In this document: positions 1,711 through 7,967 of the stretch, piece by piece
Numbering within the stretch: the first letter of the stretch is position 1
Layout: every line of letters starts with the position of its first letter
DNA from: a virus
Lineage: Duplodnaviria; Heunggongvirae; Uroviricota; Caudoviricetes
Virus record (IMG/VR): IMGVR_UViG_2713897054_000020
Reading direction: 5' to 3' (one strand)
Length of the DNA stretch: 9,715 nt
Notes under the pieces: generated by a model
Database searches by the model: none
What the model saw: the letters and a program-made list of their open reading frames with translations, nothing else
Told to the model about the DNA's origin: nothing
Program-made: the position numbers and the translations under genes

Positions 1711-2046
1711 TTATCGGGCCAGCGGCTGAACGGATACGCCAGAACCCGCAAAGGCGGCGCATTTTTTCGCATCGGTGTCGACGCTCTCAGGCCAGTTAAC
1801 GGCGGCAATATTGAATATCCCCGTCTTGTAACACTGTGCTGATTTCTGCTTTGACGTGTCCACAGGATACGAAGTCAGATAAACAGCCTTGCCAGATTCC
1901 TGACCATCCCACGGCTTAAACTCGCCATTGTCCGCCAGCATCAGCGGGGTAAATTCCTGAATAACGCCAGCATCAGCGGCAAAATGTACCAGCGTCGTGG
2001 CGACCTGCTGACTGCCTGCGAATAACTCAATGTATGGAGTGTCCAT
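1711..2046 (-). CDS. head decoration protein, lambda gpD homologue
   Basis: 111 aa, about the size of gpD (110 aa). Blocks TPLMLADNGEFKPWDG and WPESVDTDAKKCAAFAGSGVSV align with gpD TPLMLDTSSRKLVAWDG and [30 protein letters not shown] upstream of ATG 2046-2044. Confidence 0.85.
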   Translation of the reverse strand: MDTPYIELFAGSQQVATTLVHFAADAGVIQEFTPLMLADNGEFKPWDGQESGKAVYLTSYPVDTSKQKSAQCYKTGIFNIAAVNWPESVDTDAKKCAAFAGSGVSVQPLAR

Positions 2047-2057
2047 AGAATCCCCCG

Positions 2058-3113
2058 TTAACCAATTTTGACGGTAACAAATTTGCGAATATCTGCCGGT
2101 ACCGGCTGCGGTGCGCTGTGTGTCTGCACGTACTCAATCGCCGGATCGCCGTCCTCAATCCAGTTTTTCGGGTAGTACATGTTTTGCGTTGCGCCCGTTC
2201 TGACCGCTTCCTGATCCATAATCGCACCATAGGCCACCAGGCCTTTATTGTTGGTGTTACCCAGGACCAGTAAATCAGGCTCAAGGAAATATTTTTCGGT
2301 GCCGTCGCTGTCAGCGTATTTGCCGGAATAGACGATAAGGGCAATATCGCCCAGATAGCCTTTAAAGCTCACCACTTCGCCCAGGTTTTTACAGGCCAGT
2401 TCTGCGGCGGATTCTGAACCACGGGAAAGATCGTACAGCTCACGGAATTTTTTAAAGCTGCGTAACGTGCGCCATACCTCAGCGCCCATAATCATGACGT
2501 TTGCGGGGCAACCAGCCTGATCAGCATAAAGCTCGATGTCATAGATTGGGTCGTGCATCTCTTTATCCTGCTCGGACCATTTTTTACCCTTGGCCTGCTC
2601 TATGATGCAGTTTTCCGGTATTTTCCAGTCTATTTCATAGCGTTCTATGCCTTCGCCCTCAATAATGTTTTTTCCGGTCGTTATCGCATTCACCGCTAGC
2701 CATTCCACGCGCGCTTTAATGGCGTTTACCTGGCGGCGCATGTTGCCAGTAATCAGGCGCATACGTCGGTAGGTAGGGTCGTTAAGCTGTGCCGGATCTT
2801 CTCCAGCCATGCGCATGATGGTTTTTGTTGGATCGATTTCGTGCTTTGGCTTCATGTAGCCAGGTTTAATCGTGCTGGTTTCGTATCCTTTATCGCGCTG
2901 TACCTGGCTGCCAACCATAGGCGAACAAAACGCCGACATGGTGACTTCTTCAATGTCCAGGGTATCCAGCATGATGTTTTGGGTGCTGAATGTCGCCACG
3001 TTCGGGAAAAACAGCGTGGTAAACAGCGGACTGAATTTAAATTCCGCAATATCCCCGCGATTCAGGTACGCAAAAAGCTGGTTAGTGTTAAGTGCCGTTG
3101 CTTTGCCTGCCAT
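2058..3113 (-). CDS. major capsid protein, lambda gpE family
   Basis: 351 aa versus gpE 341 aa. Conserved blocks run across the whole length: EFKFSPLF, PGYMKPKHEIDP, EDPAQLNDPTYRRMR, KGYLGDIALIVYSGKY, LVLGNTNNKGLVAYGAIMD and YPKNWIEDGDPA, against gpE KFKFDPLF, PGYVKPKHEVNP, EDPQNLADPAYRRRR, KGMYGDVAIVVYSGQY, MVLGNTQARGLRTYGCIQD and YPKNWVTTGDPA. The start overlaps the upstream stop (TAATG). Confidence 0.9.
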   Translation of the reverse strand: MAGKATALNTNQLFAYLNRGDIAEFKFSPLFTTLFFPNVATFSTQNIMLDTLDIEEVTMSAFCSPMVGSQVQRDKGYETSTIKPGYMKPKHEIDPTKTIMRMAGEDPAQLNDPTYRRMRLITGNMRRQVNAIKARVEWLAVNAITTGKNIIEGEGIERYEIDWKIPENCIIEQAKGKKWSEQDKEMHDPIYDIELYADQAGCPANVMIMGAEVWRTLRSFKKFRELYDLSRGSESAAELACKNLGEVVSFKGYLGDIALIVYSGKYADSDGTEKYFLEPDLLVLGNTNNKGLVAYGAIMDQEAVRTGATQNMYYPKNWIEDGDPAIEYVQTHSAPQPVPADIRKFVTVKIG

Positions 3114-3967: not shown

Positions 3968-4233
3968 ACTGCCCCCTCTCCGGTTTTAACGTTGATGGTT
4001 GTTACCTGTTCCGCTTCGGCAATCTCCCGTTCTGTCAGCGTGGCAAAGTTTGCCGCTGCTGTGGTCATGAATGCGCTTATCAGGTCGGGATGTTCCTTCG
4101 CGTATCCTTCCCCCGCGTGGCGGTCTATTACCCTGATTGCTACCTTTAAGGCGTGCTCTGTCATGTCTAACGCTTTATATTTTGGCTCTGTTCTGTCTCT
4201 GCGCATTTTGGTTATCTCCTCACTCATGCTCAC
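3964..4233 (-). CDS. hypothetical protein (89 aa) between the origin and ssb
   Basis: ORF translationally coupled to ssb through an ATGA overlap. The start is either GTG at 4233 (SD GAGG 6 nt upstream) or ATG at 4227. No motif recognised. Confidence 0.5.
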   Translation of the reverse strand: MSMSEEITKMRRDRTEPKYKALDMTEHALKVAIRVIDRHAGEGYAKEHPDLISAFMTTAAANFATLTEREIAEAEQVTTINVKTGEGAV

Positions 4234-4420
4234 TTTTGCGCCTCACTTTTTAAAGAGTCTCGCTTCGTCTCACTTGATATTTTTGATGTTTTTATGTGCA
4301 TGTTTCATAAGGATTTTTTTACTCCTCACTTTTTGGGGTATATATACGTTGAAAAGTGAGGAGTTCAGGGGGTTTTTCGTTCAATTACTCATTGTCCTCA
4401 CTTTTGCGCCTCACTTTTTA
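4229..4420. repeat. putative replication origin: iteron array with an AT-rich inverted-repeat core
   Basis: Two perfect 24-bp direct repeats CTCACTTTTGCGCCTCACTTTTTA at 4229-4252 and 4397-4420. The sub-motif CTCACTT(TT) occurs at least six times on the plus strand and once inverted. A 12-bp inverted repeat CTCCTCACTTTT (4322-4333) / AAAAGTGAGGAG (4351-4362) flanks the AT-rich spacer TGGGGTATATATACGTTG. Sits immediately 3' of the replication helicase gene. Confidence 0.6.
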
Positions 4421-5827
4421 CAGAGGGCCTACATCATCACCGTCGATATAAATAACCCCGTCTTTTTCCAGCTTGCGTAGCCAGCGGCTGAAGTTTTTCA
4501 TTTCGTACCCCAGCTTTTTCATATCGTCACGTAACAGCGGGATCGTGCACTTGTCGCCGTGCTGTGTGCGTGACCGGATACATCCCCATAGCGCAGCATG
4601 ATTCTCCGTCTTGTTGCCAGCCTCTTCGATGCGCTCCAGTTCAACGGGAGGACGCGGCTTATCCACCACCACCAGCGACGTGATTAACTCCCCGTCAGCG
4701 TCGGTAAAAAGCTCCACCACCCGCAAATCATAGGCAGCCTCTTTGAGTTCCTCCGCGTCCTTCATTTTGGTGCATGAGATAACCAGCGCTTCGCTTCCTG
4801 CGTCCTCCCTGCGTATCCGGTATTCAGCGTCCAGTGATGCACGAAATGCACTGGAACCACGCGCCCCCTTTGTTTCATCCTTGCCGGAATGGTGAACCAC
4901 CAGCACCGTAGCCCCTGTGCGCCGTTTAAGCTCGTCACAACCACGGATAAATGCCCCCATGTCGCGGGAGTCATTTTCATCATTGCCGCCAAAGCAACGC
5001 GCCAGCGTGTCCAGAATAATCATGCGAACAGGTTTACCCGTTTCCCTCTCCACCTGACTGGCAGCAATAACCAGTTCATCAACATCAAGCGGGACAGCCG
5101 GAAAGATGGGACGGTTTACCAGATACAGATTTTTCACCTGCTCACCGTGCACAACCTCCCAGGCTTTTACACGACGCGGAACGCCGATACCGCCTTCACC
5201 AACCACATAGAGAACAGCGCCATGCGCCACCCTGCGGCCTCCCCACTGGCGGCCCGTGGAAACGTGACACGCCCACGATCCGGCAAGGAATGATTTATAG
5301 GAACCGCTCGCCCCGTATATGCTGCAAAGCGACGATGCCGGAATAATCCCCTTTACCACGTAATCAAGCTGTGTGTCGTATCCGGTAGATCCAACGCTCA
5401 TCGGTAGCGTGGTTTTTCGCTGGGGAATTTTTTTCATGACCAGGCTTTCCCCGCGTTCCCATGCCTCCCTAAGCCGTGGAAGCTGGTCGCTCCATTCCTC
5501 CAGCAATTCGAAATTTTCAGAAAGTAGCCGCGCCTCCTGGACTCCGGCGATCGCCAGTTTCGTGGCGATGGTTAACAGCTGCGGCTCTTCAATATTTCCG
5601 GCGCGTATCACCGTCGCCCTGTATCGCCCATCATCAACAATCTGGAGGTTATCCAGTTCGCTTAACTGATAACGCCCCAGATAAACGGGAGGGACTGGAT
5701 CGCCTGCTTTTTTGGCCTGTGCAATGATGTAATGCTCTGCGAATGAATGAGCATCAATACCCGCAAAAATAATCGCATCGGTGTATTTATCTTTCGGTAA
5801 TAGTTTTACGTTCGGTGCCAGTTTCAT
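4418..5827 (-). CDS. replication initiator/helicase, RepA/DnaB-like RecA-fold ATPase (AAA_25-type)
   Basis: 469 aa. P-loop-like GASGSYKS, Walker B-like VRMIILDTLARCFGG, and a helicase H4-type motif ATVLVVHHSGKD. An N-terminal domain of about 170 aa and a C-terminal domain of about 70 aa are unassigned. SD AGGGGT; the ATG overlaps the upstream stop (ATGA). Confidence 0.85.
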   Translation of the reverse strand: MKLAPNVKLLPKDKYTDAIIFAGIDAHSFAEHYIIAQAKKAGDPVPPVYLGRYQLSELDNLQIVDDGRYRATVIRAGNIEEPQLLTIATKLAIAGVQEARLLSENFELLEEWSDQLPRLREAWERGESLVMKKIPQRKTTLPMSVGSTGYDTQLDYVVKGIIPASSLCSIYGASGSYKSFLAGSWACHVSTGRQWGGRRVAHGAVLYVVGEGGIGVPRRVKAWEVVHGEQVKNLYLVNRPIFPAVPLDVDELVIAASQVERETGKPVRMIILDTLARCFGGNDENDSRDMGAFIRGCDELKRRTGATVLVVHHSGKDETKGARGSSAFRASLDAEYRIRREDAGSEALVISCTKMKDAEELKEAAYDLRVVELFTDADGELITSLVVVDKPRPPVELERIEEAGNKTENHAALWGCIRSRTQHGDKCTIPLLRDDMKKLGYEMKNFSRWLRKLEKDGVIYIDGDDVGPL

Positions 5828-6123
5828 TTTTTACCCCTGAATCCGTTAATCATTGTTTTCAGCTTCTGGATGTTTGCCCGTGCCCTGGCGTTGCTGGTGG
5901 GCACGTTATGCGGCGCGGTCTGTACCAGAGAAAAATCACGCCGGAACTGATAAACAGGCATCACGCAATCATATTCGTAACCTTCACGGCGGTAAGTTAC
6001 GCACCGTCCCGCCACGCCCTTAATCATTACCGTACCGCCGTACTGGTCGCGGTAAATATCACCGCGCGTAAATTTAGGGTGAGTGTTGCCACTGGCAGTT
6101 AAGCCAGAATATTTAAGCTTCAT
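5824..6123 (-). CDS. hypothetical protein (99 aa), basic, coupled to the replication gene
   Basis: SD GGAGAA 8 nt upstream of ATG 6123-6121. Its stop TGA overlaps the rep ATG. Basic C-terminal tail. No motif recognised. Confidence 0.55.
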   Translation of the reverse strand: MKLKYSGLTASGNTHPKFTRGDIYRDQYGGTVMIKGVAGRCVTYRREGYEYDCVMPVYQFRRDFSLVQTAPHNVPTSNARARANIQKLKTMINGFRGKK

Positions 6124-6128
6124 TATTT

Positions 6129-6362
6129 TTATTCTCCGGTGTGGGGCGCTTTATACTGGTCGTGTAATGTCTCTATTTCCTGCAACTCATTTATTACAGG
6201 CTCAAGAAGCGTTATTAATGCCGTGGCAATTCTTGATTTTTGTTTGTCGCGTTCATTGTCGCCAAGTGTTTCAAGCCATATGCGCAATATTTCCATCATA
6301 TTTTCACTGTGAGAAAGTGCAAGAAATACGCGATCTGTTGTTTCGTGGTAAATATCACGCAT
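6129..6362 (-). CDS. hypothetical protein (77 aa), acidic
   Basis: Tightly packed between neighbouring genes (1-nt and 5-nt gaps), SD GGGGA upstream. No motif recognised. Confidence 0.5.
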   Translation of the reverse strand: MRDIYHETTDRVFLALSHSENMMEILRIWLETLGDNERDKQKSRIATALITLLEPVINELQEIETLHDQYKAPHTGE

Positions 6363-6363
6363 A

Positions 6364-6858
6364 TTAATCCCCGTCCGTCGCTTTTCTTAAAATAACCTCT
6401 GTCACGAAATCAGCATAGTTAGCGGCAATATCAAGAATATTTAGCCCTGTATCTCTGTGCTCATCAGTGCAAAGAAAGAAAAAAGCCACCCGCATAATTT
6501 CAGATATTGACGAAAGCGCATCAGCCGCATCATCAGGAACGCCGGAAAATTCCTGTTTCAGGGAATTAAAACGATCATCACGCATAACCCCCCCATTTTC
6601 ACAATCAGCAATCAGGATAGCTTTGGCCTCATTCAGAGCCATATCAGCACTAAGTTGCATAACCGCCAGCGAATGAGGAACGAAAGCCCCTGCATATTCT
6701 GTTTCACTGGTGGCGTGCTTATGCGCCATGTCAGCAATAACAGAAATATCAATCAGCGCGTGCATCAGCGTAGTGAGCGCGGCGGCTGCTGCGTCCGGTG
6801 TGGTTTTATTGTGCATAGGTTTCTCCCTGGCGAATACGGGCGGCAAATACAGCAACAC
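6364..6858 (-). CDS. hypothetical protein (164 aa as drawn; about 150 aa if translation starts at ATG 6816)
   Basis: First gene of the leftward operon. The internal ATG at 6816-6814 has a better SD (AGGGAG, 6-nt spacing) than the first ATG at 6858. Acidic, Ala-rich. No motif recognised. Confidence 0.55.
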   Translation of the reverse strand: MLLYLPPVFAREKPMHNKTTPDAAAAALTTLMHALIDISVIADMAHKHATSETEYAGAFVPHSLAVMQLSADMALNEAKAILIADCENGGVMRDDRFNSLKQEFSGVPDDAADALSSISEIMRVAFFFLCTDEHRDTGLNILDIAANYADFVTEVILRKATDGD

Positions 6859-7095
6859 AACCGGACGGGCAACGGCTACGCGCTTCGCGTTCCGTCCAGG
6901 CGGTTACGTGGATGATTTGAGATTCTCCGGCACTCAGTGCCAGAAAACGCCACACAAAGGCCGTTTGTGTGTGTACAAGGTGTGGTATATGATTTACAGC
7001 AACCATAACGGCTCCTAGTTTACGTTGTTGGTTAGAAGCCCCGTTACTGCTCCTACAGTGCGGGGTTTCGTCGTTTCTACACCTTGCCTTAATAA

Positions 7096-7148
7096 GGTGT
7101 TGAACACCAATTTAAATCGAGGTGTTAAACACGTCAAGTGTTGAACAC
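7096..7148. promoter_or_regulatory. operator array: three copies of a palindromic site GTGTT(G/A)AACAC
   Basis: GTGTTGAACAC at 7097-7107, GTGTTAAACAC at 7122-7132 and GTGTTGAACAC at 7138-7148. The third overlaps a putative plus-strand -35 TTGAAC (7141-7146); a -10 candidate CATACT lies at 7164-7169. The array sits between the divergent leftward operon and the RHH gene. Confidence 0.55.
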
Positions 7149-7198
7149 TTATTTTTTTTCCTGCATACTGCATTTGTTTTTTATGAGGGGTGCTCAAC

Positions 7199-7378
7199 AT
7201 GGCGACAAAAGCAGTAAACGCAAAATCACAAACAGTTGCGGCAAGGGTTCCACATGAAGTTATGAACAATGTTGAGGCGGTAAAAATGCCCGGCGAAAGT
7301 ACAGGGCAGTTTGTTACAGCTGCATTAAAGCGGGAAGTTGAATACCGCCAGCGCCGCAAGACCAAAGAATCAGAATAA
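7199..7378 (+). CDS. small ribbon-helix-helix (Arc/CopG-like) DNA-binding protein, putative repressor
   Basis: ATG at 7199 with SD GAGGGG 8 nt upstream (the track start at 7190 is a GTG inside the SD). The N-terminal pattern QTVAARVPHEVMNNVEA followed by GESTGQFVTAALKREVE fits a beta-strand/helix/helix RHH fold. Lies directly downstream of the operator array. Confidence 0.6.
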   Translation: MATKAVNAKSQTVAARVPHEVMNNVEAVKMPGESTGQFVTAALKREVEYRQRRKTKESE

Positions 7379-7760: not shown

Positions 7761-7967
7761 TTAAGCGGTCGTTCCGCGCGCTTTTTGTTCGCGTTCTTTC
7801 ATCCATGCGATTACGTCTTCCTCATACCATCCGCGACGGCGCAAACCGACACGAAAACCCTGCGGGAATTCTCCGGCGTTGATCATGCTTTGCAGCGTGC
7901 TGTCTGCCTTAATGTGGATAAGTTTTTTTACTTCCTGGCGAAAGATGACTTTTTTGATTGCTTCCAT
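7761..7967 (-). CDS. alpA: AlpA-family (excisionase-like HTH) transcriptional regulator
   Basis: 68 aa. SD GAGGT 8 nt upstream of ATG 7967-7965. Sequence block STLQSMINAGEFPQGFRVGLRRRGWYEEDVIAWM follows the AlpA/Xis MerR-like HTH pattern (S.ST, G.FP, G.R, W, DV, W). Confidence 0.8.
   Translation of the reverse strand: MEAIKKVIFRQEVKKLIHIKADSTLQSMINAGEFPQGFRVGLRRRGWYEEDVIAWMKEREQKARGTTA

Follow-up and report, generated by a model that had tools for sequence, protein, structure and literature searches.

What is encoded by three small genes packed directly in front of a replication helicase gene is the question raised by IMG/VR record IMGVR_UViG_2713897054_000020, a stretch of 9,715 nucleotides (nt) of virus DNA (Caudoviricetes) that is referred to here as the window. 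A first-pass annotation, made from the letters alone, had described open reading frames (ORFs) of about 150, 77 and 99 amino acids (aa) at the head of an operon, and had pointed to this position as one where a satellite would place anti-repressor, helper-sensing or helper-interference functions. Our analysis reveals that the window is an EcCICFT073-type phage-inducible chromosomal island (PICI), a common phage satellite of E. coli, and that the locus is the early operon of this island with an orthologue of the regulator RgdR; what had been observed was largely right, and its interpretation partly so. That ORF1, ORF2 and ORF3 represent genes 2-4 of such an early operon, with ORF3 in a generic role proposed below, is the explanation we prefer, and we give it about an even chance. 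The operon comprises the following genes.

6806-7006, minus strand: Icd-like gene, 66 aa (NCBIfam NF033153, E = 6e-18; annotated as such in RefSeq)
6364-6816, minus strand: ORF1, ATG start, 150 aa, isoelectric point (pI) 4.5
6129-6362, minus strand: ORF2, 77 aa, acidic, pI 4.95, phrog_2196
5824-6123, minus strand: ORF3, 99 aa, basic, pI 10.2, RgdR orthologue (DUF4222), RGD at residues 20-22
4418-5827, minus strand: rep, replication helicase (RepA family, AAA_25), 469 aa (Pfam, PHROGs and RefSeq)

The operon runs from the operator and promoter through the Icd-like gene, ORF1, ORF2 and ORF3 (rgdR) to rep. The stop of the Icd-like gene, whose family is described as 'host cell division inhibitor', overlaps the ORF1 start by 11 nt. 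Because this gene precedes ORF1 and overlaps its start, it is the true first gene and ORF1 is the second, which moves the three ORFs one gene away from the head of the operon where they had been placed. ORF1 and ORF2 are separated by 1 nt (TAA-T-ATG), ORF2 and ORF3 by 5 nt (TAA-AAATA-ATG), and the ORF3 stop TGA and the rep start ATG overlap as ATGA; the coordinates thus bear out the sizes, the 1-5 nt gaps and the ATGA that had been reported. The upper end of the feature, previously set at 6858, belongs to a GTG-extended frame, and both the homologues and RefSeq start ORF1 at the ATG at 6816. A G-rich, Shine-Dalgarno-like stretch lies 6-12 nt 5´ of every ORF1-3 start. RNA structures at the gene junctions that could hide ribosome sites score no better than shuffled sequence (z -1.15 to +0.33), which indicates that the coupling rests on overlap and proximity, with no demonstrated structural lock. 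As the three ORFs are chained by overlaps or gaps of 1-5 nt, they are probably co-produced with the replication protein.

ORF1-3 are real coding genes under purifying selection. They match phrog_2512 (ORF1, E = 7e-69), phrog_2196 (ORF2, E = 6e-38) and phrog_285 (ORF3, E = 2e-31), and are conserved and syntenic in many related elements. The median pairwise ratio of nonsynonymous to synonymous substitution rates (dN/dS) across related loci is 0.13 for the N-terminal and 0.35 for the C-terminal part of ORF1, 0.34 for ORF2 and 0.27 for ORF3, next to 0.23 for the Icd-like gene and 0.09 for rep. With E-values of 2e-23 to 7e-69 and dN/dS of 0.13-0.35, the earlier view of genuine genes in a tightly coupled operon that leads into the replication gene holds.

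The window is 100% identical to an island of E. coli O91 str. RM7190, which is integrated at a tRNA-Pro gene between yejM and yejO. The region of the three ORFs has a match in 1381 of the 5426 complete E. coli genomes, and at least 80% of its 1035 nt are matched in 724 of them; the 50,697 GenBank phage records contain no DNA match to it. We assigned the island to the EcCICFT073 type, defined as an island of about 10-15 kb at a dedicated attachment (att) site, on the basis of the RefSeq annotation of the identical island, synteny with CFT073 and the iterons: int, alpA, small genes, rep with an iteron origin, and a late region for packaging and capsid are co-oriented and accompanied by an att site. 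In gene order the island resembles EcCICFT073, the prototype Gram-negative PICI, in carrying int, an AlpA-like helix-turn-helix gene, a divergent YlcI/YnfO gene, the Icd-like gene, small genes, rgdR and rep. Next come ssb, a lambda E-like capsid gene, a D-like decoration gene and terS, in the same order, and iterons surround an AT-rich region after rep in both islands. The two differ in their integration site (tRNA-Pro next to yejM here, the roxA-phoQ site there) and in their replication gene (a RepA helicase here, a primase there). The PerC gene is lacking here, ORF1 is fused here and split in CFT073, and CFT073 has an additional 76-aa gene after the Icd-like gene.

ORF3 is an orthologue of RgdR, as judged from sequence comparison. 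It matches the Pfam family DUF4222 (PF13973) at 82.1 bits (cut-off 27; E = 2.1e-23) over the whole 53-position profile, and shares 78% identity with ECs1581 of O157:H7 Sakai over 99 of 99 aa (E = 9e-58) and 91% identity with C1493 of CFT073. The RGD motif and K35 are retained. The claim that none of the three proteins carries a recognizable motif therefore fails for ORF3; it stands for ORF1 and ORF2, which have no relative of known function. In Sakai Sp7 and CFT073, as here, rgdR lies directly 5´ of the island replication gene and overlaps it, although that gene encodes a RepA/AAA_25 helicase here, a DUF927 primase in Sakai and a D5-type primase in CFT073. Two of the residues tested in PMC3378721 differ, with A10 and R45 in ORF3 in place of D10 and H45 in ECs1581; an RgdR-type activity of ORF3 in this strain is predicted.

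Flockhart et al. 2012 (PMC3378721) reported that ECs1581 and C1493 raise LEE1 promoter activity (LEE, locus of enterocyte effacement) and type III secretion, and that both repress motility. RgdR variants raise Congo-red binding, and ECs1581 binds DNA in vitro without sequence specificity (PMC3378721). Our literature search returned no functional study of RgdR beyond Flockhart 2012 and reviews. RgdR has so far been treated as virulence cargo, and ORF3 could accordingly be mainly a virulence regulator that benefits the host and has no role for the satellite. Deletion of rgdR lowers type III secretion, a defect that C1493 complements, and deletion of the whole island reduces cell attachment and sheep colonization (PMC3378721), all as this explanation would have it; rgdR is also described among the PICI accessory genes (PMC6092414). 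However, rgdR is present in all analyzed E. coli PICIs, including those of strains that have no LEE (PMC6092414, PMC3378721), and its position, described next, also argues against cargo. We consider a pure cargo role unlikely.

The position of ORF3 was followed in 88 ORF3 matches, from loci L001-L088 and from the window as well. In 88 of 88 loci the stop of ORF3 and the ATG of the replication gene overlap as ATGA, and this invariance of position and overlap is a further point against cargo. Cargo genes normally reside at island ends and vary in position. The gene that follows ORF3 encodes a RepA helicase (in two variants), a D5/DUF5906 primase or a DUF927 primase, and ORF3 alleles of 100% identity stand in front of at least four initiator types.

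Short relatives of ORF3 occupy the same place in temperate phages, which likewise speaks against cargo. We examined 33 IMG/VR contigs (L094-L126) of lambdoid type and about 40-50 kb (for example L095:4001-5226), which are related to the record of Klebsiella phage KpnBHU6. A short DUF4222 gene (54-66 aa) is followed by a downstream gene in 32 of them, the two genes overlapping by 4, 8 or 29 nt or lying 71 nt apart; the remaining contig has no ORF called downstream of DUF4222. All six downstream gene types that were tested match PHROGs of replication initiation, O-like or DnaD-like loader proteins. The DUF4222 genes come after the genes for CI, Cro, a CII-like protein and Ant, and right before the replication initiator. 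A separate contig scan with ORF3 yielded 2 loci. The idea that DUF4222 stands in for lambda CII, whose gene adjoins O, was rejected because the Klebsiella-type phages hold a CII-like gene besides DUF4222.

Such proximity could also mean that the replication protein has in ORF3 a dedicated partner, such as a helicase loader, an origin-binding accessory factor or a copy-number regulator. That ORF3 is strictly coupled in translation to the initiator gene, in satellites as in phages, fits this proposal, as does DNA binding in vitro (PMC3378721). Against it, at least four initiator types, with presumably different origins, share identical ORF3 alleles, which makes specific contacts unlikely. Searches of Pfam, PHROGs and the PDB sequences also failed to link ORF3 to DnaC, lambda P, DnaD or P4 Cnr-type proteins, and homology to ordinary replication accessory proteins, which the first-pass annotation had said would make the three genes unremarkable, was found for none of ORF1-3. 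In addition, the cloned pri-ori segment of EcCICFT073, whose insert boundaries are absent from the main text of the paper, replicates and is enough for plasmid maintenance (PMC6092414). We regard a dedicated partner as very unlikely. The invariant coupling, together with the indifference to initiator type, argues instead for a generic function alongside replication initiation, both against pure cargo and against a partner specific to one initiator.

The predicted fold of ORF3 is compatible with such a function. The AlphaFold2 model, with a mean predicted local distance difference test score (pLDDT) of 76 and about 90 in the core, contains a small barrel at about residues 20-67, with five strands and a short helix between 23 and 66, and after it a basic helix (residues 77-96). 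The safe conclusion from the model is a predicted Tudor/SH3/KOW-type barrel with a basic C-terminal helix. The homologue lists are saturated with near-identical E. coli entries, which leaves shallow alignments for modelling. Foldseek returned no PDB match at E <= 0.001, and a fold search of BFVD with the same model retrieved only uncharacterized and DUF1653 phage proteins. A five-stranded Tudor/SH3-like barrel is also the fold of KOW domains and of Tudor-like domains that bind RNA polymerase, namely the C-terminal domain of UvrD/PcrA and the N-terminal domain of CarD/CdnL. As in CarD, a small barrel and a basic helical part occur together in ORF3, and RgdR activates a promoter without sequence-specific DNA binding. 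However, identity to the RNA-polymerase-binding domains is only 13-17%, with no relationship detected at the sequence level and no significant Foldseek match. A contact of ORF3 with RNA polymerase is therefore only a lead from the predicted model.

The generic role that we propose for ORF3 builds on these features. ORF3 would be a factor that is not specific to one initiator and is produced in step with whichever initiator follows it. Its target would be DNA, the nucleoid or RNA polymerase; it might, for instance, loosen H-NS-type silencing or make contact with RNA polymerase. Such action would help the foreign element to transcribe its early genes and to fire its origin. The effects of RgdR on virulence and motility would then be spill-over onto host promoters. 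When set beside the well-known phenotypes of hns mutants, the published RgdR phenotypes (LEE1 up, motility down and Congo red up) suggest a resemblance to loss of H-NS silencing. Thus far discussed as virulence cargo, RgdR is welded to a replication-initiator gene in every satellite locus examined here; the coupling to initiators in satellites and phages, combined with a Tudor/SH3-like fold, gives a concrete and testable idea of its native job, and this idea would explain why such satellites reprogramme host virulence and motility.

Several points weigh against this explanation. The H-NS idea stems only from setting the over-expression phenotypes in the literature beside those known for hns. 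Barrels of the Tudor/SH3 kind are very common, and the absence of a PDB match at E <= 0.001 applies here as well. The model of ORF1 is unreliable (pLDDT 54), and a role of ORF1-3 in the satellite life cycle is putative. Tight packing ahead of a replication gene could be mere operon compaction, and the sufficiency of the pri-ori segment indicates that the upstream genes are probably not essential for replication. A bolder version, in which the DUF4222/RgdR proteins would be conserved Tudor-like factors that are always made with the initiator and act on the nucleoid or RNA polymerase (for instance against H-NS) to license foreign DNA, with control of type III secretion, motility and curli as a by-product, and in which, separately, a G tract would switch the upstream proteins between fused and separate states, appears distinctly improbable when taken as a whole. 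The coupling of DUF4222 to initiators, the Tudor-like fold of RgdR and the poly-G junction at which two satellite genes are either joined or kept apart may each be worth follow-up.

This junction lies within ORF1, which is composed of two modules.

6586-6816, minus strand: N-module of ORF1, residues 1-77, a helical hairpin in the model, phrog_5146 (residues 1-73)
6588-6594, minus strand: poly-G tract of seven G (G7), two bases 5´ of the C-module ATG
6364-6585, minus strand: C-module of ORF1, residues 78-150, starting MRDDRF, with its own ATG, phrog_24341

The two modules are separate, overlapping genes in CFT073, Nissle 1917 and most loci. The boundary reads GAAAAT-G(n)-TT-ATG, with tracts of G7-G11 in related elements. 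G7 and G10 produce a fused ORF1, and G8, G9 and G11 produce separate modules; with G8 the N-module stops 8 nt after the C-module ATG, and with G9 it continues in the third frame. The IMG/VR loci comprise 23 with G7, 34 with G8, 20 with G9 and 4 with G10, and about two thirds of the related elements have two genes in place of ORF1. The start of the C-module and both intact frames are kept in every tract state, and the G run can serve, as we infer, as the Shine-Dalgarno or ribosome-binding site of the C-module. The modules recombine independently, with pairs of elements in which one module has 55% and the other 96% identity, or 91% and 68%. Only 50 relatives of ORF1 occur among 1.8 billion representative proteins, and many of these are single modules of about 75 aa. 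The separate PHROGs, the separate genes in CFT073 and Nissle 1917, the independent recombination and the G tract at the boundary together argue that ORF1 would represent two independent small genes, joined in this element by a hypermutable G tract. Frame disruption in relatives, which had been named as evidence against real genes, is thus present in a formal sense: ORF1 is split in most of them, yet both halves persist with a start of their own, and 4 loci lack ORF2 or carry it frameshifted. The AlphaFold2 model of ORF1 consists of helices only and is too poor for a fold search.

The tract length also differs between near-identical elements. Among 10 groups with 440-nt flanks of at least 99.5% identity, 5 contain more than one tract length, and the complete genomes L089 (fused) and L090 (split) differ in the tract and have identical neighbouring proteins. 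Either the tract mutates far faster than its surroundings or it is often mis-assembled. In the second case the fused ORF1 and the various tract lengths would be homopolymer assembly errors or neutral decay, and ORF1 and ORF2 possibly decaying passengers. The tract states are near one third per frame (27 for G7 and G10 together, 34 for G8 and 20 for G9), as would occur with no selection on the frame; many of the sampled IMG/VR contigs may stem from older draft assemblies; and ORF2 is lost or frameshifted in the 4 loci mentioned. On the other hand, decay is hard to square with intact frames in both halves and a C-module start that is kept in all states, or with dN/dS of 0.13-0.35, and we find error or decay a doubtful account. 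Fusion of two independent genes by a hypermutable tract recalls the homopolymer contingency loci that underlie phase variation, in which a G tract at a coding boundary differs in length between near-identical elements and sets the frame. The difference is that a frame change here leaves the downstream module on, since it keeps its own start. The likeness is drawn from length polymorphism among elements, so that switching within a population is putative. Homopolymer contingency tracts are unusual in E. coli. The junction also matters for annotation, as a single base decides between one gene call and two. IMG/VR contig 2740892233_000016 (L031, L160) carries two copies of the ORF1 junction, one with G7 and one with G8, which suggests two related islands in one genome.

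ORF2 is similarly variable. Its identity is 66-100% in most loci, with a 30% variant in Sakai and variants of 34-37% in some loci; L079, L080 and L093 have no ORF2, and the copy in L091 is frameshifted. In 86 of 88 loci the ORF2-ORF3 junction, GGAGAATAAAAATAATG, is kept, and identical ORF2 alleles are found with RepA, D5-type and DUF927-type initiators. ORF2 has no match in Pfam, NCBIfam, the PDB sequences or the GenBank phages, and tblastn with ORF1 and ORF2 found none in the 50,697 phage records. The PDB sequence search gave nothing meaningful for any of ORF1-3, the PADLOC defence models contained no family for them at E <= 0.1, and the literature search found no paper on what homologues of ORF1 or ORF2 do. 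Both are satellite-specific genes without a characterized relative. We also considered whether the genes of about 75 aa (the N- and C-modules of ORF1, ORF2 and the extra CFT073 and Sakai genes) are tandem paralogues, and rejected this because the profile-profile probability is 1% or less.

Because ORF1 and ORF2 are exclusive to satellites, mosaic, partly dispensable and do not co-vary with the replication gene, they belong to the accessory genes. Both would be satellite-specific, acidic, helical proteins, mosaic in distribution, with ORF2 dispensable. Most likely they bind and modulate a host or helper protein, outside the core replication machinery, a view that we hold with low confidence. 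They are among the satellite-exclusive genes of a family whose DNA is matched in roughly one in four complete E. coli genomes.

An anti-repressor, helper-sensing or helper-interference factor among ORF1-3, as first proposed, would be a special case of such modulation. It draws on the early-operon site just downstream of an operator array, and on ORF1 following and overlapping the Icd-like gene. Phage P1 has a comparable order, with icd ahead of the antirepressor gene. The satellite-specific, acidic, mosaic and variable nature of ORF1 and ORF2 is likewise that expected from an arms race with helpers. Searches of Pfam, PHROGs, NCBIfam, PADLOC and PDB, however, did not connect ORF1-3 with Ant, KilAC, Bro, P4 epsilon or any known interference protein. 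Gram-negative PICIs are induced through helper-dependent expression of AlpA, with no anti-repressor (PMC6092414), and PMC6739421 describes a specific interference function, Rpp, for E. coli PICIs. The proposal is thus quite unlikely in our estimate. Rpp is reportedly encoded in the late region, away from ORF1-3.

The operator array that had been noted upstream of the operon is confirmed as three palindromes around a promoter-like site.

7097-7107, 7122-7132 and 7138-7148 (span 7097-7148), no strand assigned: operator-like array of three GTGTT(G/A)AACAC palindromes
7190-7378, plus strand: divergent YlcI/YnfO-family gene (NCBIfam)

The palindromes interleave with the promoter-like TTGACG-17-TAAATT on the minus strand (7137-7109); the promoter scan by itself is at chance level, with 4 found and 4.5 expected. 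The product of the YlcI/YnfO-family gene is the obvious candidate for the palindrome-binding protein. A degenerate fourth palindrome is located at 7189-7199. In its layout the early operon resembles the immI operon of P1 (icd-ant) and the early operon of P4 (epsilon, alpha), in which the Icd-like gene is coupled to the next gene and the operon proceeds toward replication functions. It differs in that ORF1 is unrelated to Ant, an epsilon homologue is absent, and Rfam detects no C4/isrK-type RNA.

The leader RNA (6965-7110, minus strand) folds better than its shuffled versions do (z -2.36), and the ribosome site of the Icd-like gene is paired in this fold. The ribosome-site region TAGGAGCCGTTATGG (7017-7003) has a duplicate copy, TAGGAGCAGTAACGG (7055-7041), and both copies occur in only 4 of the fetched loci, one of which is the source island (L001). 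This layout recalls RNA control of the P1 c4 and P4 CI type; an Rfam search of the whole window at E <= 1 gave no C4, isrK or other relevant RNA. A terminator-like hairpin lies at 6971-6951, inside the Icd-like gene.

Elsewhere on the island, the AlpA-like helix-turn-helix gene (7761-7967) matches Pfam at E = 0.003, below the cut-off, and an excisionase/regulator PHROG at E = 1.7e-7. The lambda E-like major capsid gene and the D-like head-decoration gene (1711-3113, minus strand) are arranged as in EcCICFT073, and no portal, protease or large terminase gene is annotated on the island. The probable origin of replication is positioned at the 3´ end of rep.

4229-4425, no strand assigned: probable origin, with the iteron CTCACTTTTGCGCCTCACTTTTT at 4229-4257 and 4397-4425 flanking an AT-rich stretch

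This layout fits the PICI origins described in PMC6092414, and shorter iteron copies are present between the two CTCACTTTTGCGCCTCACTTTTT copies.

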